From Candidatus Woesebacteria bacterium (lineage in GTDB: Bacteria; Patescibacteriota; Microgenomatia; UBA8517): a stretch of 64,000 bases of DNA. The translations under genes were made by a program, and so were the position numbers. Position 1 is the stretch's first letter, and every line of letters starts with the position of its first letter. The DNA is taken from NCBI GenBank assembly GCA_016432365.1, contig CP066686.1, positions 346,906 through 410,905 on the forward strand, in the 5' to 3' direction. The notes under the pieces were generated by a model. That model saw only the letters and a list, made by a program, of their open reading frames with translations. It searched no databases and had not been told where the DNA came from. Shown here one piece after another: positions 15,324-64,000 of this stretch.

Positions 15324-15848
15324 TCAATTTACCACAAATCTAGTATCTAAAGCCAACGGCAACACTTTTGAGTCAAGCATCTTTGTGGCAGTTTTCAAAT
15401 CCTTTTTACTTAGTGCCCTACGAATTTTTGTTGCAGAAATCTTGTTAGATTTTTCTTTTCTATCAATCAAAACTTTTGTCTTAAATCTTTCTGCCAGTAC
15501 TTTTAAATCTTCAACACTTCCGCCAAAAAAAGTAAATTTGGCTTTCATCCTTTTTTCCAATTCCTCAACACTATCCAACCATACATTGTTTGTGTCGTTG
15601 TGGAAAGTTATTAAATTGGGTTCCGGGTCGGGTAGGGGGAGAATTCTAATATTCGGATAAATAGAACGAATCATATTTTTTCGTTGACTGAAAGTATAAG
15701 GTGTGCGGGAGTTTATCGTGGTGGAAGACCCTATTATTATCAAAACGCTTTTCTCACCAAAGTCGTAAATTAATTTATCTACAATTTTTTGATGTCCAAG
15801 GTGGAAAGGACAAAACCTTCCGAGTAAGACTGAATACTCTTTCATCAT
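15324..15848 (-). CDS. nadM: Nicotinamide-nucleotide adenylyltransferase, archaeal NadM-type
   Basis: GRFCPFHLGH (H/T)xGH nucleotidyltransferase motif; 174 aa; C-terminal ISATKIR motif. Confidence 0.7.
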   Translation of the reverse strand: MMKEYSVLLGRFCPFHLGHQKIVDKLIYDFGEKSVLIIIGSSTTINSRTPYTFSQRKNMIRSIYPNIRILPLPDPEPNLITFHNDTNNVWLDSVEELEKRMKAKFTFFGGSVEDLKVLAERFKTKVLIDRKEKSNKISATKIRRALSKKDLKTATKMLDSKVLPLALDTRFVVN

Positions 15849-17839
15849 CGTTTATTTGTTGGCTGTTCATATGGTGACGCTTTCAATGCTGCAAGTAAAT
15901 CTTCAAGTTTAATTCTTGCAACTGCAACCGTGGTGTCTCCTGCCCCGTAGTAAACCAATAGTTGATCTTTTAGAATCACATATCCACAGGAAAAAACGGT
16001 TCCGGGACGAAATCCGCTCATTTCATAATTCTTTTCGGGTTCAAGTATGGGATAGTCTAAAAGATTTTTGATTGTTAAGGGATCCTTAAGGTCTAAAAGC
16101 ATTGCACCTAGTCGATATTTTAAGTCGTCTTTAGAGAGCCCGTGGAATATAAGCAGCCATCCTTGGGTAGTTCTAATTGGCGTCCCGGTTATCCCTACTT
16201 TTTCGGAGTACCATTTGTCGGACCTTGGTTCAAAAAGTATATTACCCTGAATCCATCTGCCGTCGCTAAAATCCATGGTGTCGGTATAGTCAATCCAAAT
16301 TCTGTGATTGGTTCTATGGAAAATTGCGTATTTTCCTCCGATTTTTTCTGGCAGAACACATGCGTTTTTGTCGTTTATCTCACGCGGGGAGACAATCATG
16401 GCTTTGCTCCAATTCCATTTTTTCTGCAAAAAATCATCTACACTAATAGTGCTAAAGGCTATATGGGTTGGGTCACCGTCTTTATATGCGGTGTAAAAAA
16501 GATAGAGTGTATCACCAATTCTAGTAATTCTGGGGTCTTCACAACCTAAAGTTTCGTAATCTTCTCGTGGTACATACACAGGTTTATCCAATCTTTCTTC
16601 AATGGTCACTCCATCAGTCGAATTCGCATAGCCCAGAGTCGATACATTGTCTGTCCCTTGGGCTCGGTAGAGAATGTGAACTTTTTCCTCAAGTACAATT
16701 GCAGTGGGGTTAAATGTATACATTGCTTCCCATTTGCTTAAGGGCCTTGGGGAAATAATCGGGTTTCCTTCAAATCTTGCTAAATGCGCCTTCATTGGCC
16801 TAATGCCTGCGCCGGTCTTTTCGTCAAAATACATGTTGTTAATAAGAAGGTCCAAATTAATCGATGCGACCGCGCTTACACTATCTGCCGCGCCATAATA
16901 AACGTATAAAATTCCGTCATTAACAACTGCCCCGCTTGGAAATATTACATATGGGACTTCTCCAAAAAGTTCATATTGCTCCTTCGGAGTAAGCAAGGGG
17001 TCTGTGGTTCGGGCCAGAATAGTCTGGGGATCGTCTGCTTTAAGAAGAACCGCCTCAATTCCAAATTTTTGATCAGAAGAAAAATAATCGCTGATGTACG
17101 AGTGGATCAAAAGCCATCCATATTTGGTTTTAATGGGTACTGCCCCAACTTCAACCTGGTGCGAACTGTCGCGTAGAAGGTCGATTTTATTGAGGTCAAT
17201 GTTTTTTTGCCACTTATCCCAATAATCCTCGGACCAAATGTCGTTAATTTCGTCAAAATAGGCGATACAAATTTTAGAAGGTGGCCTATCGGGATTAACA
17301 GTAATCAGCATTGCATATTTGCCGTTAATTTTTTCCGGAAAAAGGCAAGCAGCTTTGGCATTGAACGGGGTGACCAGGTGTTTTTCTTCGATAGTTTTAA
17401 AGTCGTGGGTTATCGCAACCCCAACTTTTATGCAATCAGCGTTATAGGGATAATTAGAAAGAGCGGTATAAAAGATATAATAGATATCGTCGATTTTTGT
17501 GATTCTTGGGTCTTCGCATCCATATTTTTCCCAATCGTACTCGGGTTCTATTAGTTGTTTTCTGTTTACAAAATGTATCGGGTCTGGAGAATTTGCGTAC
17601 CCGATTGTTGAAAGTTTTATTTCTTTGTCAAAATATGGCTTTGCTTTTGAAAGCGCCCTATAAACCATGTGATACAAATGTCCGTCTTCGATAACTGATG
17701 GATTAAAACTTGCCTGGTTTTCCCACCTGTTTGTGGCAGAAGGGGATAATATTGGATTTTCGAATGATCTAGTTAGCTTTAACATTAAAATTAGATAGGT
17801 CCTCTGTCCCAATACTGTCCAAATGCGGCGAATTGTCAA
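15845..17839 (-). CDS. Tandem two-domain GH130-family glycoside phosphorylase (mannoside-phosphorylase-like); true start is probably the internal Met near 17785
   Basis: two repeats of the GH130 signature (FNPSVIEDGHLYHMVYRA and FNPTAIVLEEKVHILYRAQG), each followed by CEDPRIT. Confidence 0.7.
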   Translation of the reverse strand: MTIRRIWTVLGQRTYLILMLKLTRSFENPILSPSATNRWENQASFNPSVIEDGHLYHMVYRALSKAKPYFDKEIKLSTIGYANSPDPIHFVNRKQLIEPEYDWEKYGCEDPRITKIDDIYYIFYTALSNYPYNADCIKVGVAITHDFKTIEEKHLVTPFNAKAACLFPEKINGKYAMLITVNPDRPPSKICIAYFDEINDIWSEDYWDKWQKNIDLNKIDLLRDSSHQVEVGAVPIKTKYGWLLIHSYISDYFSSDQKFGIEAVLLKADDPQTILARTTDPLLTPKEQYELFGEVPYVIFPSGAVVNDGILYVYYGAADSVSAVASINLDLLINNMYFDEKTGAGIRPMKAHLARFEGNPIISPRPLSKWEAMYTFNPTAIVLEEKVHILYRAQGTDNVSTLGYANSTDGVTIEERLDKPVYVPREDYETLGCEDPRITRIGDTLYLFYTAYKDGDPTHIAFSTISVDDFLQKKWNWSKAMIVSPREINDKNACVLPEKIGGKYAIFHRTNHRIWIDYTDTMDFSDGRWIQGNILFEPRSDKWYSEKVGITGTPIRTTQGWLLIFHGLSKDDLKYRLGAMLLDLKDPLTIKNLLDYPILEPEKNYEMSGFRPGTVFSCGYVILKDQLLVYYGAGDTTVAVARIKLEDLLAALKASPYEQPTNKR

Positions 17840-19607
17840 ACTTAAGTGCGTCCAAAAATTCGTTTACATTGGCCATGGCGGCTGCTATATATGTGTCGGA
17901 AGCGCCATAATAAACAATTAGTTTTTCATCAATTACTACAGCCCCGCACGGATAGACTACACCAGGTTTAAAACCCGAATTTTCATAATGTGCTGCAGGT
18001 TCAAGTATTGGACGGCTTGATCTATATAATACTTTTGTTGGGTCTTTCAGGTCCAGTAGCATCGCTCCAATCTTGTAAACTCCGTGATCAAAACCCACGG
18101 CTTGATAAATGGCAAGCCACCCATCCTTAGTTTTTATGGGTGGTGGCCCGATGCCGACTTTTTTACTGTCCCAAAAATTCGGTCGTGGGTGGATTCTGAA
18201 TTCACCGGAAAGCCATGCACTTTTTCCGTCGAAATCCAAATCATCGACAAAATCAATTAATATATCCGGGTAAATTCTATGGAATATTACGTATTTACCG
18301 TCAATTTTCTCCGATAAAATACATGCATTTTTGTCTACAACTCCCGGGGGTGAAATTAAAACTGACTTTGCCCAGTTTTCCCATTTTTGATTTTCGAAGT
18401 CTTTGGTTGAAATATAGGTGAGTGCCACACGGGGTTCGGATTTGCCGTTATAGGCAACGTAAGTGAGGTAAAATTTATCATCAATTTTAGTTATCCTCGG
18501 ATCTTCAATTCCGCCGTAGCCACCGCCACCCGACACAAACGGTGATGTTTTAATCGGGATATCGTAATTTGGATGTTCAAATTCCTCCTTGGGAACATAG
18601 GCAGGGGTCGAAAATCTGCTGTCGACGTTTACACCGTTACTGCTTGTTGCATACCCCAAAACAGAGGTGTCGTGATCTCCAATAGCCCTGTAGAGAAGAT
18701 GGACTTTTTCGCCGTGATAAACCGCAGCGGCGTTAAATACCTGTTTTGATTCCCAGAGATTGGAACTTGGAGTAATTATCGGGTTGTTTAGAAACCGTAT
18801 TAAAGTTGCATGCGGAAGCGGTGAGCCGCTTATTACATATTCTTCGACCGGTGTATGAACTACACAAAAAACTCCTTTTTGTTCCATTTCCCAGTAAGAA
18901 TAATATGTGCCTCCGTATTCGATAATGCCGACCGGTTTTATCGGTTTCCCTGTCCATTCCTGAGGGGCTTGCCAGTAGGCTTTTTCAGTTTTCCACTTAA
19001 CAAGAGTCGGATCTAATGGATCCAGATTAACAATCCAAATTGAATAATGGTTATGGCCTTCATGCTCTTCCTCCCGGAAGTACGTCATGACAATACCTTC
19101 CGGAGTCTCTTTAACGGAACCCATCGTATAATGGAATTTTGAGGCCGGTAAATCAACTTTTTTTATATTCCACCTTTCGTTGTCTTCCGACAGGCCAACA
19201 TTCAGCGATGTTCCACCAAAGAAAACAACAGATTGATCCTTGTGCTTGAAAAACGGAACGGAAATTGCGGCCTCGGTAATAGGGAAAAGACGTTTTGAGC
19301 CTTTCCAATGGCAAAAATCGGTTGATGTGGCCATATTCAAATATTTATGCCCAGCCTTTTCGGATAGGTATAAAAGTTGATAAATATCCCCGGTTTTTAT
19401 CGAGTTAAACGAAGAAGTTCCCAAAATTGCTTCCGACGAACTTAAACCCTCTATCGTGCATTCATCAGTATATTTATTGAATATTTTACCATCGGTACTA
19501 TAATCCATTCGAAAATTTGGAGACTTGTTTTGGGCGGGGTTATAGCAAATAAATATTTTTTCGTCGAACGAGGCTACACCCAATGTTTTAAATACGTTAT
19601 CTTCCAT
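17769..19607 (-). CDS. GH130-family glycoside phosphorylase with an additional N-terminal beta-propeller-like domain
   Basis: C-terminal half carries FNAAAVYHGEKVHLLYRAIG and IEDPRIT GH130 motifs; paralogous to the neighbouring gene. Confidence 0.65.
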   Translation of the reverse strand: MEDNVFKTLGVASFDEKIFICYNPAQNKSPNFRMDYSTDGKIFNKYTDECTIEGLSSSEAILGTSSFNSIKTGDIYQLLYLSEKAGHKYLNMATSTDFCHWKGSKRLFPITEAAISVPFFKHKDQSVVFFGGTSLNVGLSEDNERWNIKKVDLPASKFHYTMGSVKETPEGIVMTYFREEEHEGHNHYSIWIVNLDPLDPTLVKWKTEKAYWQAPQEWTGKPIKPVGIIEYGGTYYSYWEMEQKGVFCVVHTPVEEYVISGSPLPHATLIRFLNNPIITPSSNLWESKQVFNAAAVYHGEKVHLLYRAIGDHDTSVLGYATSSNGVNVDSRFSTPAYVPKEEFEHPNYDIPIKTSPFVSGGGGYGGIEDPRITKIDDKFYLTYVAYNGKSEPRVALTYISTKDFENQKWENWAKSVLISPPGVVDKNACILSEKIDGKYVIFHRIYPDILIDFVDDLDFDGKSAWLSGEFRIHPRPNFWDSKKVGIGPPPIKTKDGWLAIYQAVGFDHGVYKIGAMLLDLKDPTKVLYRSSRPILEPAAHYENSGFKPGVVYPCGAVVIDEKLIVYYGASDTYIAAAMANVNEFLDALKFDNSPHLDSIGTEDLSNFNVKAN

Positions 19608-59022: not shown

Positions 59023-59679
59023 ATGAAGGATACAAAGACATTTGCAGTATTGGCCACAGACGTTGCAGTTTTGACTATCGACAATGGTGTTCTTAAAGTC
59101 CTTTTAACCCAGGCGACATCTAAAAACTTTAAGGGAATGTTGACTTTGCCTGGAGGTTTAGTTGGTCATAAAGAACGTACCGAAGAAGCTGCTATAAGAG
59201 TCCTCAAGGAAATAATGATAAAAACGGATTACTATAACGAGCAACTTTATACATTCGACGATCCCGGCAGAGATCCTGAGGGTCGAGTCGTAACAGTTGC
59301 CTATTTAATGTTGGTTCCGGAAGATGAGGCTAAAAGAGTAACTAGAAAAGACGCTTCGTGGCACGCCGTGAAAACTTTACCAAAGTTGGCATATGATCAT
59401 AATGAAGTTGTGAAAGCTGCTGTGAAAAGGCTAATGGGAAAATTGACCTACACTAATATTGTTTACTCTTTGATGCCCTTGGAGTTTACTCTTTCAGATT
59501 TGCAGAAAACCTACGAAACTGCGCTGGAACTAACCCTAGATAAAAGGAATTTTATTAAAAAAATAAAGAGTTTAAATCTTGTTCATAAGACAACCCATAA
59601 GGTTGAGGGTAGTGCACACCGCCCGGCAACCCTTTACAGGTTCAGGGAGCGAAAATATAAGAGGGTTGACTTATTTTAG
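59023..59679 (+). CDS. Nudix-like domain regulator, NrtR-like (paralog of 24154..24813)
   Basis: same architecture and the C-terminal RPATLYRF motif shared with its paralog. Confidence 0.5.
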   Translation: MKDTKTFAVLATDVAVLTIDNGVLKVLLTQATSKNFKGMLTLPGGLVGHKERTEEAAIRVLKEIMIKTDYYNEQLYTFDDPGRDPEGRVVTVAYLMLVPEDEAKRVTRKDASWHAVKTLPKLAYDHNEVVKAAVKRLMGKLTYTNIVYSLMPLEFTLSDLQKTYETALELTLDKRNFIKKIKSLNLVHKTTHKVEGSAHRPATLYRFRERKYKRVDLF

Positions 59680-59822
59680 AAAATACCTATAATACGAAGT
59701 TGATATTTTTAAGCACTTTAGTTAGTGTAAAATATACATTTTCAAGATTGAAATGAAGGTTTTTCAGAAAAACCTCCTGACAATTTTTAATTTGTACTTT
59801 AACAGTTAAAGAGTGTTACTAA

Positions 59823-59836
59823 AGATTCAGAACTGT
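59823..59836. repeat. imperfect direct repeat AGAT-C-GAACTGT flanking the GC-rich cassette (left copy)
   Basis: matches 62036-62051 (AGATCGTCTGAACTGT); followed by palindrome TGTGACGGTCACA at 59838-59850. Confidence 0.3.
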
Positions 59837-59939
59837 TTGTGACGGTCACACCCTTTCGACTAAATATTAGCCGGAAGAGAGTGACTGTTACAGCAGAAAC
59901 TGAAGCTGTGATGGCATATATCTACAAAAGGAGATCACT

Positions 59940-60869
59940 ATGGACGAAACCAAAAGCACTGATTTGAGCATTGTGCCTGTAAAGCCCGATGCCGCATTGG
60001 TGGCCACCCTTACTCACGAATTCGACTTCGTCGGCGCGAGTGGGGCGAATTACGAGGCCTACAGTCTTGGTGGCAAGCCGTTGGTGGAAACACCGACTTT
60101 CAAGTTGGCTATCACCAAACTTCCGTCCGGCCAGTTTGGCTTGACGATGATTGCGTCCGAACCCAAGCACAATTGGCGGATCGAAACACAACAGCATGTT
60201 CTGCATACCTTGCAGGAAATGGCTGCGTTTGAAGACGCTGAGACAAAAGGCGATAAGCCTTTCTTCGGCGCACTTTTCCCCACCATGGTAGATACCATGG
60301 ACACGGGCGAGGACAATCCTCGGGCCGGGCTTGTAATGGGTTTCCATCCGGAAATCGCAAGCTACAAGCAGCTGGTTCCGCTCTCGGTTGTTCTCAAAGG
60401 CGGCAAACGCGTCGATCTTCAGACCAGTGTTTGGATGCTAAGTAAGGCCCTCAAGCTCCTGGACTTTGTCCACGCAATGGGTTTCGCGATCAACTGGATC
60501 GATGAGGATAATTACCTGATCGAGACTGCCCGCCACGGCGTTTTCATCCTGAATTGGATGGAATCGATCGAGGAAGCATCGGTTGATGAGCAGAAGACCG
60601 ACATCAAGGACCTTGCCAATCTCGTTTGGCGCGCTGCTGGCGGCACGGACAAATCGAATCCCCCTCATGACGAAAAGATCATGGACAAGGCCGGATACGA
60701 CAAGTTCGTCGCCTTTTTGAAGCGCTTGATGAGCGAGCCGGATACGGCTGGCAATGAAATGGACGCGCTCCTTGCGCTGGCCGATTCGATCTGGGAACGG
60801 ACTGCTTTCCCCGGCGTTCGCACGCCCGATGGCAAGAAGCGTCCTTTCCATGAATTCGTTACGTACTAG
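59940..60869 (+). CDS. hypothetical protein (309 aa) encoded in the GC-rich cassette
   Basis: strong SD (AAAGGAG 7 nt upstream of the ATG), coding-like composition at about 56% GC; weak resemblance of HAMGFAINWIDEDN to a degenerate kinase catalytic loop. Confidence 0.55.
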   Translation: MDETKSTDLSIVPVKPDAALVATLTHEFDFVGASGANYEAYSLGGKPLVETPTFKLAITKLPSGQFGLTMIASEPKHNWRIETQQHVLHTLQEMAAFEDAETKGDKPFFGALFPTMVDTMDTGEDNPRAGLVMGFHPEIASYKQLVPLSVVLKGGKRVDLQTSVWMLSKALKLLDFVHAMGFAINWIDEDNYLIETARHGVFILNWMESIEEASVDEQKTDIKDLANLVWRAAGGTDKSNPPHDEKIMDKAGYDKFVAFLKRLMSEPDTAGNEMDALLALADSIWERTAFPGVRTPDGKKRPFHEFVTY

Positions 60870-60878
60870 GAGGTCGAA

Positions 60879-62027
60879 ATGAAGACAGAAGACACTGCAA
60901 TGTTCAATACGAAAAAGTATGAATCCACTGTGGAAGCAATGCGCTCCCGCGGCGAAGAGGTTCATGCCAAAGGCCGTGAGATTTATCGCCGGACCAAGCG
61001 TATGGATCCTCTGGTTGATGTCAACGGCAAGCTCCGCTTGTCCCACAACTCGTTCAAAAAAGTTGATGGCAAGCCAGTGCTCGTCAACGGCCCAGCCCTG
61101 CCGATCTGGTCCGGGTTCGATGGAACCGGTTCGATGGGTGAAAATGCCGGCCGCGCACACGCTGCACTCGCGGAAATCAACGCGATGCTCAATGGAATCC
61201 GCGGAACCTACAATCCGCAACTCGCGACATCGGTAATTCAGGATGTGGATGACCCCCACCCTGTCTTCCAGATGTCCCAGTTTGAGCCTGATGAACGGAT
61301 CGCAGAGCAAATTCGTCTGCTGATCCCCGACGGCGCTGGTGGCGATGAGACCGAAGACTACCAGCTTGCGCTGGCCTATCTCATGTTGGCGACCGATTTC
61401 GATATCGCCAACTTCTATGGCCTCAAGGGCTATGGATTCATCGTTGGTGATGAAATCGGGCGCGAAGACGTGACCGTGAAAGATGTCGAAAAACATCTCG
61501 GCCACAAGCTTCAGAGCAAAATGACCACCAAGGCTGTTGCCAAGGAACTGGCCAAGAAGATGCATCTCTTCTACATCCACGTTCAACTTGGGCATAGCCA
61601 TGGCCATTCACCTGCCTGGTGGCAAGACAAATTCGGCGCCGGCCATGTCGTGGTCGCGACTGACGTCAGCCTCTTGGCTGAACTTCAGGCCGGGCTCATC
61701 TACGTGACCGAAACTCTCGAACCGACCGAAGCTGGTCTCTTCGAATTTCTGTCGGCTGGTGGATCGAACAAGCATGCTACCAAGAGCGCAGTTGCCAAGG
61801 TCTGGTCTTGGATCACTGAAGCCGGCGTTCCTTTCGGCGCTCAGGTCAAGCTTGCCGGTTACAAAGACCTTCCCAAACCGGGAGACGTCTTTGAGAACAT
61901 CCGTCATCAGTGGCCCGTCGGTCACAAACGCTTCGCTGAGAATGTGATCGCCCCCGAGGCGACCGTCACCGAAGTGCACGTCAGCTCTCCCAAGAGCGAA
62001 AAACCCGATTGGTCTCGCTTCGGCTAG
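60879..62027 (+). CDS. vWA/MIDAS-like domain protein (382 aa) encoded in the GC-rich cassette
   Basis: strong SD (TAGGAGGT), DGTGSMG (DxTxS MIDAS-like) followed by a LLIPDGAGGDETED region reminiscent of the vWA TDG motif. Confidence 0.5.
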   Translation: MKTEDTAMFNTKKYESTVEAMRSRGEEVHAKGREIYRRTKRMDPLVDVNGKLRLSHNSFKKVDGKPVLVNGPALPIWSGFDGTGSMGENAGRAHAALAEINAMLNGIRGTYNPQLATSVIQDVDDPHPVFQMSQFEPDERIAEQIRLLIPDGAGGDETEDYQLALAYLMLATDFDIANFYGLKGYGFIVGDEIGREDVTVKDVEKHLGHKLQSKMTTKAVAKELAKKMHLFYIHVQLGHSHGHSPAWWQDKFGAGHVVVATDVSLLAELQAGLIYVTETLEPTEAGLFEFLSAGGSNKHATKSAVAKVWSWITEAGVPFGAQVKLAGYKDLPKPGDVFENIRHQWPVGHKRFAENVIAPEATVTEVHVSSPKSEKPDWSRFG

Positions 62028-62035
62028 ATCGTCTG

Positions 62036-62051
62036 AACTGTAACACTCTTT
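62036..62051. repeat. imperfect direct repeat (right copy) flanking the GC-rich cassette
   Basis: matches 59823-59836. Confidence 0.3.
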
Positions 62052-62062
62052 TCGTGTACCCA

Positions 62063-62098
62063 CTCGCATCCTTTGGGGTGGGTACACGATCTTGCATA
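62063..62098 (+). terminator. perfect 11-bp stem hairpin (CGTGTACCCAC-N14-GTGGGTACACG) immediately after the cassette
   Basis: read directly; no strong T-run follows, so it may equally be a protein-binding site. Confidence 0.4.
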
Positions 62099-62232
62099 AG
62101 ATCTTTAATTTTTGAAACGACGTCATTGCGATGTCAATTTATTCGAAAATTAGAAAGATCCATGCAAGAAACTAACCCTCTTCCGATGTGTGTCGGAACC
62201 GATGAGCCCCAAAGGGCGAAAGGGATAATAAA

Positions 62233-63657
62233 ATGGAAAGACAAACTGCCATTGTAACAGGACTAGGCATTGGCGATGAAGCCAAGGGTGCGACAGTTGA
62301 GTGGCTTACACGCCAGCTCAATGCTCATACCAATCTCCGATCCGGCGGACCTCAGGGCGGGGCTCATATATCAAGAATCGACGGACGTGAGCAGATGTTT
62401 TCGCAATTTGGAGCCGGTACTTTTGAGGGAGCAAAAACACATCTTCTGCACATGGTGGTTAGCCCCTGGGATCTTTTCAACGAAGCAGTGGATCTTGAAA
62501 AAAATGGCGTGGAAAAACCACTCGAACGAATAACAATCGATTCAGAAAGTTTAATCCTTACCCCGTATCACAGCGCAATTAGCAGATTTAGGGAAATTAT
62601 GCGTGATGAGAAAAAAGGAACGGTGGGTAAGGGTGTAGGGGAAGCGATTCGCGACTCTAAAAATCCGGAACTTTCAATCCGGGCGTGGGAATTCTTCGAA
62701 CCCAAGGAAACACTTGCGCGTAAAGTTGAAGCGATCAGATCTTCCAAATATTCAGAGGCTCTGGAAATAATTAGACAAAAAAACGGAAAGGAAATGCCCG
62801 GGGCGGCTCAAATGGAACTAAACATTCTTCTTAATAGGAGACTGGTTGGGCAAACTGTAGACATGTTTTCTTATATGGCCGGTTTGGTTAAGATAGTTGA
62901 CCGTTCTTATCTGGACGACATTCTAAATCTTCCCGGATCGATTGTGGCGGAATCGTCACAGGCCGCACTTCTGGACCCCAGAATTGGCTTTGTGCCCCAT
63001 GTTACTCAGGTTGATACTACAGGAAGAAGGGTTATTAATACGCTTAAGGATCATGATTACAGAGGAAAAGTAATTCGGCTTGGGGTAAGCCGCACCTATA
63101 TGATAAGGCACGGTGCCGGTCCTTTTGTAAGTTATAGTCCGGAAATGACAAAAACGCTCCCTGAAGCTCATAATGCAAATCCCGTAGACACTCCATGGTC
63201 GGGTGAATTCAAAAGAGGGCATTACGATGTGGTTGCCATGAAATATGCGATTGATGCAACGGGCGGGAGGCGTGCGTACGACGGATTGGTTATAAATTTC
63301 ATGGATATTTTGAAAGATAGAAAGGAATGGGATGTGTGTGTAGCCTATGATTATGACGGCGATAAACACGATTTAGAAGATTTCTTTGTAGTTGAAAATG
63401 GTCTGATCCGAGGTATAAAAGTTCACCATGATGACGGTAGCTCGGCCCATCTCAATCACCTGGCTCAACTCACAAAACTACTCGCCAAAAGTCATCCCGT
63501 TTTAACTACATTAAAAGCTGAGGACAGCAAATCTCTTTCGGAAGTGTTTATAGATTTCGTTGAATCTAGCCTTGAAGTTCCTGTGGTTGCTACCGCCGAC
63601 GGGCCTTACGTTGAAGATAGGCATATCCGATCGGGACACGAAAATTCATTTGGTTGA
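62233..63657 (+). CDS. adenylosuccinate synthetase family protein, divergent PurA-like
   Basis: by-eye alignment to E. coli PurA: GIGDEAKG (GDEGKGK), GGPQGGAH (GGHNAGH), GTVGKGVGEA (TTGRGIGPA), SSQAALLD (GAQGTLLD), HGAGPF (VGAGPF); the GTP P-loop is degenerate. Confidence 0.55.
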   Translation: MERQTAIVTGLGIGDEAKGATVEWLTRQLNAHTNLRSGGPQGGAHISRIDGREQMFSQFGAGTFEGAKTHLLHMVVSPWDLFNEAVDLEKNGVEKPLERITIDSESLILTPYHSAISRFREIMRDEKKGTVGKGVGEAIRDSKNPELSIRAWEFFEPKETLARKVEAIRSSKYSEALEIIRQKNGKEMPGAAQMELNILLNRRLVGQTVDMFSYMAGLVKIVDRSYLDDILNLPGSIVAESSQAALLDPRIGFVPHVTQVDTTGRRVINTLKDHDYRGKVIRLGVSRTYMIRHGAGPFVSYSPEMTKTLPEAHNANPVDTPWSGEFKRGHYDVVAMKYAIDATGGRRAYDGLVINFMDILKDRKEWDVCVAYDYDGDKHDLEDFFVVENGLIRGIKVHHDDGSSAHLNHLAQLTKLLAKSHPVLTTLKAEDSKSLSEVFIDFVESSLEVPVVATADGPYVEDRHIRSGHENSFG

Positions 63658-64000
63658 TGTCAGGTCGGGCAGGAAAACCTTGCTAAGAAATAAAAGCGAA
63701 GCTATTTGTCTGTATCCAGAATCCCAAAAGTCACTTTTCCAATCGATTAGATTTGAATGTGTAGTTCCTTCCTCTTTTTTCGACGGATATAATTTTCTGT
63801 AACCTTTGTGCATTATCCGGAATTGTAGGACGTCCAATTCGAGCATAAGCAAAAGTTTTGTCCTAACCAAATCTTTTTGATCTCCGAACCTTTCCAAATT
63901 GAGGTATTTTTCCATCAAGTCCTGCCTGAATTTTGTAAGTTCCCTACCAAACCCTATCCAAACTCCACCAAATAGGAAGTGAATTTGTTCGGCCCCTATT

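Follow-up and report, generated by a model that had tools for sequence, protein, structure and literature searches.

Cluster C (Bxz1-like) mycobacteriophages, of which MoMoMixon is an example, carry genes for a 'Ser/Thr kinase' (gp256), for the hypothetical protein gp257 and for a 'PurA-like adenylosuccinate synthetase' (gp259). The same three protein families are encoded in the same order near one end of the DNA analysed here, a stretch of 64,000 nucleotides from Candidatus Woesebacteria (the window). In the window they are represented by g1, a pseudokinase-like protein, g2, a protein with a von Willebrand factor A (vWA) fold, and g3, a PurA-like protein; a fourth gene, g4, codes for a nucleotidyltransferase, and a candidate hammerhead ribozyme lies between g2 and g3. 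Profile comparison links g1 to gp256 with an hhalign probability of 97%; g2 matches gp257 with E 4e-11 and g3 matches gp259-type proteins with E 1e-36 at 98% coverage, and on these sequence matches the phage genes appear to be the nearest relatives of the module. The phage loci differ in that they are devoid of g4, of the hammerhead and of the leader motif described below, and in that the phage kinase passes the Pfam Pkinase model, to which g1 shows no match.

Several other described systems resemble single parts of the locus. The TerY-P triad and related vWA-kinase-phosphatase modules (Anantharaman, Iyer and Aravind 2012) reportedly encode a vWA protein with a metal-ion-dependent adhesion site (MIDAS) beside a kinase-fold protein, as is the case here, and the first-pass annotation of the window had drawn this analogy. 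It does not hold: none of the 15 neighbourhoods encodes a PP2C phosphatase, the kinase is degenerate, no TerY/vWA Pfam match is obtained, and the genes are coupled to an adenylosuccinate synthetase (AdSS)-like protein and a nucleotidyltransferase. The protein g3 shares with PurA and PurZ the superfamily fold and the nucleotide-binding motifs, but it falls far below both curated cut-offs, has a replaced loop and is not adjacent to a MazZ or DatZ partner. In g4 the FGSRVKG-x-A...D-x-D core of the MNT component of MNT-HEPN or MntA-HepT systems (e.g. HI0073) can be recognised; unlike those proteins, g4 is 550-620 amino acids (aa) long and contains extensive conserved domains at both its N- and C-terminus, lacks a HEPN partner, and is either fused to the AdSS-like enzyme or encoded beside it. 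At the RNA level, processing stems of rRNA operons, retrozymes, viroid-like RNAs and RNA-phage genomes offer an analogy only. As in these, the 5' and 3' flanks are predicted to pair across kilobases, the body is highly paired and a hammerhead is located at the boundary, whereas the present unit is DNA-encoded, protein-coding and single-copy, and contains one ribozyme in most loci. Finally, clustered bacterial hammerheads flank genes in prophages (Perreault et al. 2011, PMC3088659). The predicted ribozymes of the module have in common with type III hammerheads (RF00008) a full catalytic core, three covarying stems and an intergenic position in an operon, and in one locus (L010) the copies likewise flank g1-g2. 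They differ from the prophage clusters in belonging to a chromosomal, non-prophage Patescibacteria operon and in always accompanying one gene family, and from known hammerheads in scoring below the Rfam thresholds, in having a stem III which doubles as a Shine-Dalgarno sequence, and in occurring together with a helix between leader and trailer and with a coding RNA that is structured and rich in GC. Judged by these comparisons, they would represent a new set of members of the known hammerhead class in another context.

We propose, with moderate confidence, that the GC-rich segment containing g1 and g2 is the RNA-structured upstream half of a conserved Patescibacteria operon which is processed by the ribozyme and has g4 alongside. 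The window is cellular DNA that is coding on both strands, with genes for aminoacyl-tRNA synthetases, including a class I lysyl-tRNA synthetase, Lon, RecJ and a P-type ATPase. Within it, the GC content in 300-nt windows rises to 0.50-0.58 across about 59.85-62.1 kb and then drops to 0.40-0.49; the 5.9 kb upstream have values of 0.32-0.47 in such windows, and the remaining 1-kb bins lie at 0.34-0.47, none exceeding 0.47. The sharp jump that had been reported for this segment is thus real (54-55% at 59.9-62.0 kb, compared to 39% elsewhere). For the single genes, GC amounts to 0.539 in g1 and 0.552 in g2, compared to 0.393 for bases 1-59000. Since the GC content at third codon positions (GC3) is 0.65 in g1 and 0.63 in g2 but 0.39 in the neighbouring genes, including g3 as the next gene of the operon, the difference is located at synonymous sites. 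Four-fold degenerate sites of both genes (59940-62027) contain C at 0.38-0.46, G at 0.20-0.26, T at 0.24-0.27 and A at 0.09, a C-rich, A-poor strand asymmetry that is repeated in most loci and reaches 0.02 A and 0.57 C in g2 of locus L009.

The two open reading frames (ORFs) of the segment are co-oriented, code for 309 and 382 aa and are each preceded by a Shine-Dalgarno sequence (AAGGAG and AGGAGG), as previously annotated; the gap between the g1 stop and the g2 start measures 9 nt. The peptides HAMGFAINWIDEDN, DGTGSMG and PDGAGGDETED, to which attention had been drawn, are all present. Long antisense ORFs over the same DNA were considered as genes and rejected. As g1 and g2 together contain only 2 TTA, CTA or TCA codons in 693, and as neither length nor frame is kept elsewhere (the open stretches of other loci span 102-502 aa in differing frames), these ORFs are codon-bias artefacts, in agreement with the earlier suspicion.

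Scans with g2 yielded four loci in GTDB genomes and seven in JGI metagenomes, and no relatives in IMG/VR. The module with the order g1, g2, g3, g4 is found in at least 15 Patescibacteria loci, and a search for co-occurrence shows g1 and g2 adjacent, and together with g3 and in part g4, in every long contig examined (L004, L005, L007, L009, L010, L013-L015 and L019-L024). The two genes open a four-gene module and do not form the self-contained two-gene cassette that was originally described. The closest relative, L025, shows 94% protein identity; between loci, identity is 40-70%, with means of 0.52 for g2 and 0.54 for g3. L004, L019, L023 and L025 share the context of an MgsA-like ATPase, a SpeE-like methyltransferase, an NrtR-like gene, the module and SecA; between distant genomes the flanks of the module differ. 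All named homologues of g1 and g2 belong to Patescibacteria (Candidate Phyla Radiation, CPR) assemblies, and no GC-rich donor genome is found among 101 homologues. Integrase, transposase and tRNA genes were not found at the cassette borders, nor was a recombinase associated with the loci.

Higher GC3 values in g1 and g2 than in g3, g4 and the flanking genes are seen in all 15 loci. The values are 0.75/0.79 for g1/g2 and 0.16/0.20 for g3/g4 in L009, 0.74/0.68 for g1/g2 and 0.25 for g3 in L013, and 0.67 for g2, 0.87 for g1b (a gene of a second cassette type, see below) and 0.26 for g3 in L021; in L010 and L015, g1 and g2 lie about 0.05-0.1 above g3 and g4. Since the proteins are 40-70% identical and the synonymous sites have turned over many times, the GC excess must have been maintained and not inherited from a donor. 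Compared to L025, third positions have diverged by 0.19 in g1 and 0.25 in g2, and by 0.32 in g3 and 0.35 in the NrtR-like gene, so that extra constraint must act on the synonymous sites of the two cassette genes. Their GC excess is no relic of a recent transfer; it is a property that is kept up in the RNA ahead of the ribozyme.

The first-pass annotation had interpreted the same segment as horizontally acquired, that is, as a recent foreign two-gene island from a donor of higher GC content, inserted by site-specific recombination between flanking repeats. Such an origin would account for the sharp compositional step that coincides with the two ORFs and for a four-fold usage (C > G, T >> A) resembling that of an organism with 55-60% GC. 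It is, however, already contradicted by the presence of the same genes at the same position in related genomes (the synteny of L004, L019, L023 and L025) and by an anomaly that extends to 15 of 15 loci at long-saturated synonymous sites; these sites are extra-constrained instead of relaxing to host composition, and the borders contain neither an integrase or transposase nor a tRNA gene. We thus consider a recent acquisition highly improbable. The direct repeats, viewed as possible att sites, are likewise not kept: the right copy, AGATCGTCTGAACTGT, is located at 62026-62041 and not at 62036, and even in L025 with its 94% identity the left copy falls within an 11-nt indel and the right copy is altered. 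What is conserved at these positions instead is an inverted pair, AAAGAGTGTTAC (59808-59819) and GTAACACTCTTT (62040-62051). The genes are consistently present at this position in relatives, although the operon they belong to is not an ordinary housekeeping operon.

For an assessment of RNA structure, 150-nt windows from 10 loci were folded and compared to synonymous-codon permutations in which protein sequence and codon usage are kept. In 19 of the 20 cassette genes the native RNA folds more stably than its codon shuffles, with z values for g1/g2 of -5.2/-6.5 in the window, -6.3/-4.3 in L009 and -4.9/-4.2 in L023. The control genes, g3 and the NrtR-like gene, show no excess (z -1.6 to +2.1, the value of -1.6 belonging to g3 of L004). 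A single g3 with an excess was found (z = -2.2), in L020, which is the sole locus with a hammerhead downstream of g3. Everything upstream of the ribozyme thus behaves as selected, densely paired RNA, and it is to this pairing that we attribute the GC3 excess and the slow synonymous rate.

The predicted ribozyme at the boundary is present in 13 of the 15 long loci and on two short contigs. In an alignment of 15 sequences 90% of the cells are paired, compared to 30-54% with slid partners, 8 of 14 pairs show compensatory changes, and none of 500 shuffles reaches this level. The core elements CUGA(U/C)GA and GAAA and the cleavage-site UC are found in 14 of the 15 aligned loci. The core also comprises the A15.1-U16.1 pair and C17, and the covariation supports three helices of which stems I and II are closed by loops and stem III is open. 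The window sequence scores 72.8 bits (E 4e-20) with covariance model R1, which detects only this one hammerhead in the 64 kb and none in the phage loci. The model also found copies outside its training set in L023 (upstream of g3), L020 (between g3 and g4), L010, L014 and L015. In L010 an extra hammerhead precedes the leader of g1, which places one ribozyme on either side of g1-g2, and the extra copy of L014 and L015 ends a second GC-rich cassette consisting of g1b and a small ORF. Between the window and L025 all 62 nt of the hammerhead are identical, compared to 85% in the flanking spacer. In nearly all loci, the window included, the 3' strand of stem III (AGGG) is at the same time the Shine-Dalgarno sequence of g3.

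The g2-g3 spacer as a whole is highly structured. Folding of 62028-62235 yields a minimum free energy of -73.9 kcal/mol (z = -6.6), with none of 200 shuffles being as stable. A hairpin with an 11-bp stem had been annotated here; it is indeed perfect, but its arms are 12 nt long and lie at other positions than stated (Table 1), and it is kept with compensatory changes in L004, L019, L023 and L025. In the fold of the isolated spacer, the trailer sequence CUCUUUU (62046-62052) pairs with GAAAGGG (62218-62224), that is, with the 3' strand of stem III and the Shine-Dalgarno sequence of g3. A three-way competition between the leader-trailer helix, the pairing of the trailer with the Shine-Dalgarno sequence and stem III of the ribozyme could make folding of the ribozyme conditional.

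Upstream of g1, the leader contains a conserved motif and a hairpin. A strict regular expression for the leader motif matches at about 6 places in about 380 kb, four of which are module leaders and two of which lie elsewhere. We considered the motif as a plain sigma-70 promoter and rejected this assignment: a -35-like TTGACA/TTAACA element is present, but a conserved -10 element at the right spacing is not, and the motif is therefore treated as part of the transcript. For the leader hairpin, RNAalifold predicts a consensus of 23 pairs, 18 of them with compensatory changes; 85.5% of the cells are paired, compared to 37-49% with slid partners, a level that none of 500 shuffles reaches, and the G-U pairs point to an RNA transcribed from the plus strand. 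The palindrome TGTGACGGTCACA is located at 59838-59850 as annotated, yet it is a portion of the 5' arm of this hairpin and not an element in its own right. Its assignment as an NrtR operator is not supported, as the exact site is found only in L004 and L009 and is everywhere part of the covarying hairpin. Among riboswitch and other RNA families, none matches the leader or the spacer, with hammerhead models appearing below threshold only.

The 3' half of the leader motif and the trailer that follows g2 are complementary at 12 of 12 positions and would thus form a helix spanning 2.2 kb. The cognate inverted copy directly follows the cassette stop in 12-13 of the 15 loci, and the two arms covary, reading GAGCGC/GCGCUC in L019 and AAAAAGTGTTTA/TAAACACTTTTT in L015, with further cases in L021, L013 and L022. 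In L025 a C-to-U change leaves a G-U pair, which again points to the plus strand. As to the start of the transcript, the -10 hexamer of a candidate promoter and the bases downstream of it are kept in L025. The -35 region differs between the window and L025 (the leader being otherwise about 95% identical) because of a 76-nt insertion just upstream of the conserved TATAAT, at about 910-1000 of L025, which aligns with window positions 59680-59690.

Table 1. Predicted RNA elements and genes of the module in the window.
Feature	Position	Strand	Description
Promoter-like site	59666..59693	+	TTGACT-16 nt-TATAAT, 11/12 consensus; candidate start of a leader of ~240 nt
Leader motif	59793..59819	+	Family consensus GCACATTRACAAGTGAAGAGTGTT, ~24 nt; upstream of the first cassette gene in 14/15 loci
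Long-range helix, 5' arm	59808-59819	+	AAAGAGTGTTAC, 3' half of the leader motif
Leader hairpin	59834..59896	+	RNAfold z = -3.7; palindrome within its 5' arm
g1	59940..60869	+	309 aa, degenerate kinase-fold protein
g2	60879..62027	+	382 aa, vWA-fold protein
Trailer	62040..62051	+	GUAACACUCUUU (inverted copy GTAACACTCTTT); starts 13 nt after the g2 stop
Trailer hairpin	62052..62089	+	Perfect, 12 bp; arms 62052-62063 and 62078-62089
Extended stem-loop of the g2-g3 spacer	62090..62168	+	Similar architecture in L004
Type III hammerhead (predicted)	62169..62230	+	Manual parse and covariance model
Hammerhead stem III	62176-62179 with 62221-62224		Predicted cleavage after C62180
Hammerhead stem I	62181-62186 with 62193-62198		
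Hammerhead core CCGAUGA	62199-62205		C instead of U at core position 4
Hammerhead stem II	62206-62209 with 62214-62217		GAAA at 62218-62221
g3	62233..63657	+	474 aa, divergent AdSS-superfamily (PurA-like) protein, host-like GC3
g4	63646..64000	-	C-terminal 117 codons, gene leaves the window; 550-620-aa family with MNT-type Pol-beta nucleotidyltransferase core

Conservation, covariation, the fusion of g3 with g4 described below, composition and excess structure are computed properties of the sequences; RNA cleavage, pairing of the ends in vivo and all biochemical activities are what we infer in the following working model. We would give its RNA part an even chance and its protein part less than that. 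A long transcript would begin about 240 nt before g1, and the hammerhead would cut it about 50 nt before g3. Stem III having just 4 bp, the 5' product could depart and thereby expose the ribosome-binding site of g3, which otherwise would serve as the 3' strand of that stem. The cut would release a leader-g1-g2 RNA of about 2.3-2.5 kb whose ends may pair (AAAGAGUGUUAC with GUAACACUCUUU) and whose body would be densely folded, and the two halves of the operon would in this way come to differ in stability and translation. At the protein level, g3 and g4 might act as a catalytic pair, composed of a phosphoryl-activating purine-nucleotide ligase with a changed second substrate and a nucleotidyltransferase, with g1 and g2 as its non-catalytic sensor, adaptor or regulatory subunits.

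Several observations weigh against such a ribozyme-processed operon. The RNA evidence consists throughout of comparative or thermodynamic prediction. Core position 4 of the hammerhead is C in the window and in L025 (CCGAUGA) but U in all other loci, and changes in the core usually reduce hammerhead activity (PMC3088659). Rfam hammerhead models yield 0 matches in the 15 loci at gathering thresholds, and the scores lie far below these, with 17.8 bits for Hammerhead_3 in L004 (threshold 48.5) and 14 bits for HH9 in the window (threshold 52). The long-range helix is not clearly seen in L009, and L020 lacks it behind g2. An excess of structure is hardly present in L004 (z -1.5 and -1.8) and missing from g2 of L010, and pairing selection alone does not account for the four-fold asymmetry with C >> G and A at 0.09. 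The identity of g1 and g2 tracks that of g3 only weakly (r 0.34 and 0.21), and the correlation between g3 and g4 is equally weak (r 0.37). Least certain are the roles proposed for the proteins, which rest on folds, motifs and gene neighbourhood.

A second cassette type occurs in L010 (3789-8181), L015 (14785-16451) and L014 (15090-16949). It has the same leader motif with a long hairpin, GC-rich ORFs (g1b of about 380 aa and an ORF of about 170 aa) and its own hammerhead at the end. We considered g1b as a second kinase-like protein and rejected this, as it is unrelated to g1. L010 contains in addition a paralogous pair that is more phage-like; its vWA protein has 515 aa and matches phrog_2971 with E 1e-40, and its PurA-like protein has 448 aa. 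Two unrelated cassette types with the same leader motif and the same terminal ribozyme (L010, L014, L015), together with the permuted gene order of L021 and L022, would fit exchangeable cassettes (g1-g2, g2-g1b, g1b-x) that are bounded by the leader motif and the hammerhead or trailer and swapped between genomes by recombination, with their GC-richness supplied by an external pool common to them or produced by GC-biased gene conversion at a recombination hot spot. The widely varying GC3 excess among loci would then reflect replacement followed by amelioration, and the identities of g1 and g2 correlate with each other (r 0.72) but weakly with that of g3 (r 0.34). As a test of independent transfer, however, the correlation of g2 with g3 is uninformative owing to saturation of the identities: the correlation is no stronger for g3-g4 than for g2-g3, even though g3 and g4 are fused in one genome. 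Furthermore, exchange predicts neither the excess RNA structure nor the slow synonymous rate, biased gene conversion predicts a strand-symmetric gain of G+C and not C >> G, no recombinase is associated with the loci, and the 101 homologues, of which the named ones are all from Patescibacteria, include no GC-rich donor. We therefore judge cassette exchange to be an unlikely origin of the segment.

Regarding the proteins, g1 matches phrog_3043 'kinase' (E 5.7e-7), and its AlphaFold2 (AF2) model (confidence score pLDDT 89) retrieves PknB, Mnk1 and the STK40 pseudokinase in Foldseek searches (E about 1e-9, TM 0.5-0.57), as expected of a bilobal kinase fold. The canonical beta3 Lys, HRD Asp and DFG Asp are missing in the window protein: the beta3 position is M, where distant family members have K, the catalytic loop reads F-A-I-N-W-I-D-E-D-N, and LNW is found where distant members have a DFG-type LDF. 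Distant members thus retain the beta3 Lys and the DFG-type Asp. The kinase-like fold devoid of the catalytic Asp that had been suggested for g1 is borne out, and g1 is best called pseudokinase-like. The AF2 model of g2 (pLDDT 92.9) shows a vWA core with N- and C-terminal extensions, which is matched in Foldseek by integrin beta I-like, Ku80 vWA and NorD vWA domains (E 5e-6 to 3e-4) and by viral VWFA proteins in BFVD. Its MIDAS residues D81-x-T83-x-S85, of the form DxTxS, and D191 are invariant in 49 of 49 sequences, so that the earlier assignment as a vWA protein is confirmed by fold and motif. In profile searches g2 matches phrog_2971 (E 6e-20), yet no vWA model of Pfam or NCBIfam at E <= 1 and nothing in PADLOC. 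Likewise, g1, which had been annotated as having no recognisable family, corresponds to no named family or defence system in Pfam, NCBIfam and PADLOC, and sequence and profile searches of the PDB with g1 and g2 gave nothing useful. Among 1.84 billion proteins, the g2 family profile collects 976 representatives (50%-identity clusters, E <= 1e-10), and no Pfam model covers the family. The best viral structural match of g2 is A0A3G3M5V4 of Mycobacterium phage Sauce in BFVD (595 aa, E 1.5e-15, TM 0.68 over the query), whose much greater length suggests a fused or extended vWA form in some cluster C phages.

The protein g3 is recognised by Pfam Adenylsucc_synt (E 1.7e-41) and phrog_1211 (E 3e-50), but obtains only 118 bits with NCBIfam purA NF002223 (cut-off 402), 94.8 bits with TIGR00184 (cut-off 395.55) and 24.5 bits with the PurZ model (cut-off 300). 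Its similarity to the PurA-like proteins of mycobacteriophages (E 1e-36) is greater than that to any AdSS with a solved structure (E 1e-19). The window protein has the P-loop GDEAKGA (GDEGKGK in PurA), the catalytic His and the Gln of the inosine monophosphate site; D-to-E and Q-to-H changes at catalytic positions occur in copies other than that of the window, L004 and L005 having a GEETKG P-loop and a His replacing the Gln. The segment aligned to TTGRRRR of E. coli, which we take to be the L-aspartate-binding loop of AdSS, is replaced (GATTGRRRRTGWLD by PWSGEFKRGHYD, W-S-G-E-F-K-R-G-H-Y-D), and the form Q/S-G-x-[FI]-[RK]-x-G/A of the new loop is common to g3 and the phage PurA-like proteins. 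At E <= 1e-10 the phage matches of g3 are confined to cluster C mycobacteriophages, Rhizobium phages and one Escherichia phage, none of which is known to carry PurZ. By these sequence features g3 is in all likelihood not an ordinary PurA.

On the minus strand, the reading frame of g4 continues without a stop as far as the end of the window, and its product matches the C-terminal ends encoded by the corresponding genes of L004 and L005. In the family motif GS...DxD the residues G422, S423, D434 and D436 are invariant in 13 sequences, the window portion lying downstream of this motif, and the family profile matches HI0073 (1NO5, E 5e-4). PADLOC returns only PDC-S09 (E 0.0096 over 28 residues), and no homologues of g4 were matched in phages. 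In L007, g3 and g4 form a single protein of 1104 aa with E 1e-114 to the separate g4 of L005. The gene is mostly convergent to g3 and co-directional in L009 and L020; in the window the convergent 3' ends overlap by 12 nt (63646-63657), and an overlap of 10-35 nt is also seen in L004, L005, L010, L015, L019, L023 and L024.

These properties bear on the possibility that the locus is an ordinary purine-salvage operon, in which g3 would be a working adenylosuccinate synthetase, g1, g2 and g4 accessory proteins and the leader a riboswitch-like element. In favour of it, nucleotide salvage is essential to CPR bacteria, the module has a syntenic position on the chromosome, NrtR-like, NUDIX and HD genes lie nearby, and the window g3 retains three features of the AdSS fold, namely its P-loop (as GDEAKG), catalytic His and Gln. 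With 118 bits, however, g3 remains far from the 402-bit equivalog cut-off and is closer to phage PurA-like proteins than to cellular AdSS, the presumed L-Asp-binding loop is replaced, catalytic positions deviate in other copies, g3 is fused to the nucleotidyltransferase in L007, and the leader matches no known riboswitch family. An ordinary salvage operon consequently appears improbable to us.

The relatives in phages direct attention to yet another function. A tblastn search of phage genomes with g2 returned 159 records, which fall into three unrelated groups: cluster C mycobacteriophages, Rhizobium phages (about 200 kb) and Vibrio phages (about 190 kb). The match adjoins an adenylosuccinate-synthetase-like gene in each group, and in the mycobacteriophages a kinase gene precedes it. 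The genes upstream of the g2 homologue in Rhizobium and Vibrio phages were examined as g1 homologues and found not to be homologous. Homologous trios or pairs are present in about 200 cluster C mycobacteriophages as well as in Rhizobium and Vibrio phages, where the phage copies adjoin NAD-salvage and NADAR genes, and conflict systems commonly contain vWA domains, kinase folds and nucleotidyltransferases of the MNT type. With the flanks of the module varying between distant genomes, this would be in line with a nucleotide-based conflict system (defence or counter-defence) common to CPR bacteria and large phages, whose RNA features provide rapid or infection-proof expression. Against it stand the lack of PADLOC matches for g1, g2 and g3, the absence of g4 from phages, a module which in the lineage of the window is syntenic, single-copy and without defence-island neighbours, and the lack of a recognisable toxic effector domain. 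We assign a low probability to a conflict function of this kind.

In the Rhizobium phages, the genes adjoining the g2 and g3 homologues code for NMNAT/NUDIX and phosphoribosyltransferase proteins, and in the Vibrio phages for a NADAR protein. In the window, an NrtR-like regulator with a NUDIX and an NrtR winged-helix domain (59023-59679, plus strand, E 1e-21) lies directly upstream of the leader, as in L023 and L025, and other NUDIX genes are found within a few kb of the module in L019, L020 and L021. This neighbourhood may indicate a link to NAD or ADP-ribose metabolism, or be a coincidence.

Going beyond the processed operon proposed above, the released RNA might have a life of its own. As a ribozyme-bounded, end-paired and folded coding RNA which in its architecture is closer to RNA-phage genomes and viroid-like RNAs than to an mRNA of bacteria, it could be exceptionally stable, possibly circularised (L010 with its two hammerheads) or passed to another cell, and it could work together with a new purine-nucleotide-modifying pair of an AdSS-like protein and a nucleotidyltransferase, a pair with relatives in large phages, in what would be a new RNA-centred regulatory or conflict system. 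We offer this extension as a speculation that is rather unlikely to hold.

In the open-access full-text literature we found no paper linking these genes, ribozymes or phyla, and none on hammerheads in Patescibacteria, although a description elsewhere is possible; the system of four proteins and RNA elements is apparently undescribed. If the proposed reading is true, it would add a four-protein module that links CPR bacteria with large Mycobacterium, Rhizobium and Vibrio phages and whose vWA component represents a family of about 1,000 clusters at 50% identity with no Pfam model. Hammerheads, whose role in bacteria has been unclear since 2011, would gain a fixed and testable genetic context between the halves of an operon. 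The segment would also be a counter-example to equating atypical GC content with horizontal transfer, as a synonymous GC excess of up to 0.6 is kept over deep divergence, along with selection for RNA structure, and the divergent AdSS-like enzymes with their replaced loop and fused nucleotidyltransferase would be candidates for new nucleotide chemistry.

Elsewhere in the window, the minus strand carries a tandem pair of GH130 genes (15845-19607), whose mannoside phosphorylase-like products are 664 and 612 aa long and both of which have an N-terminal extension of about 300 aa that yields no Pfam match.

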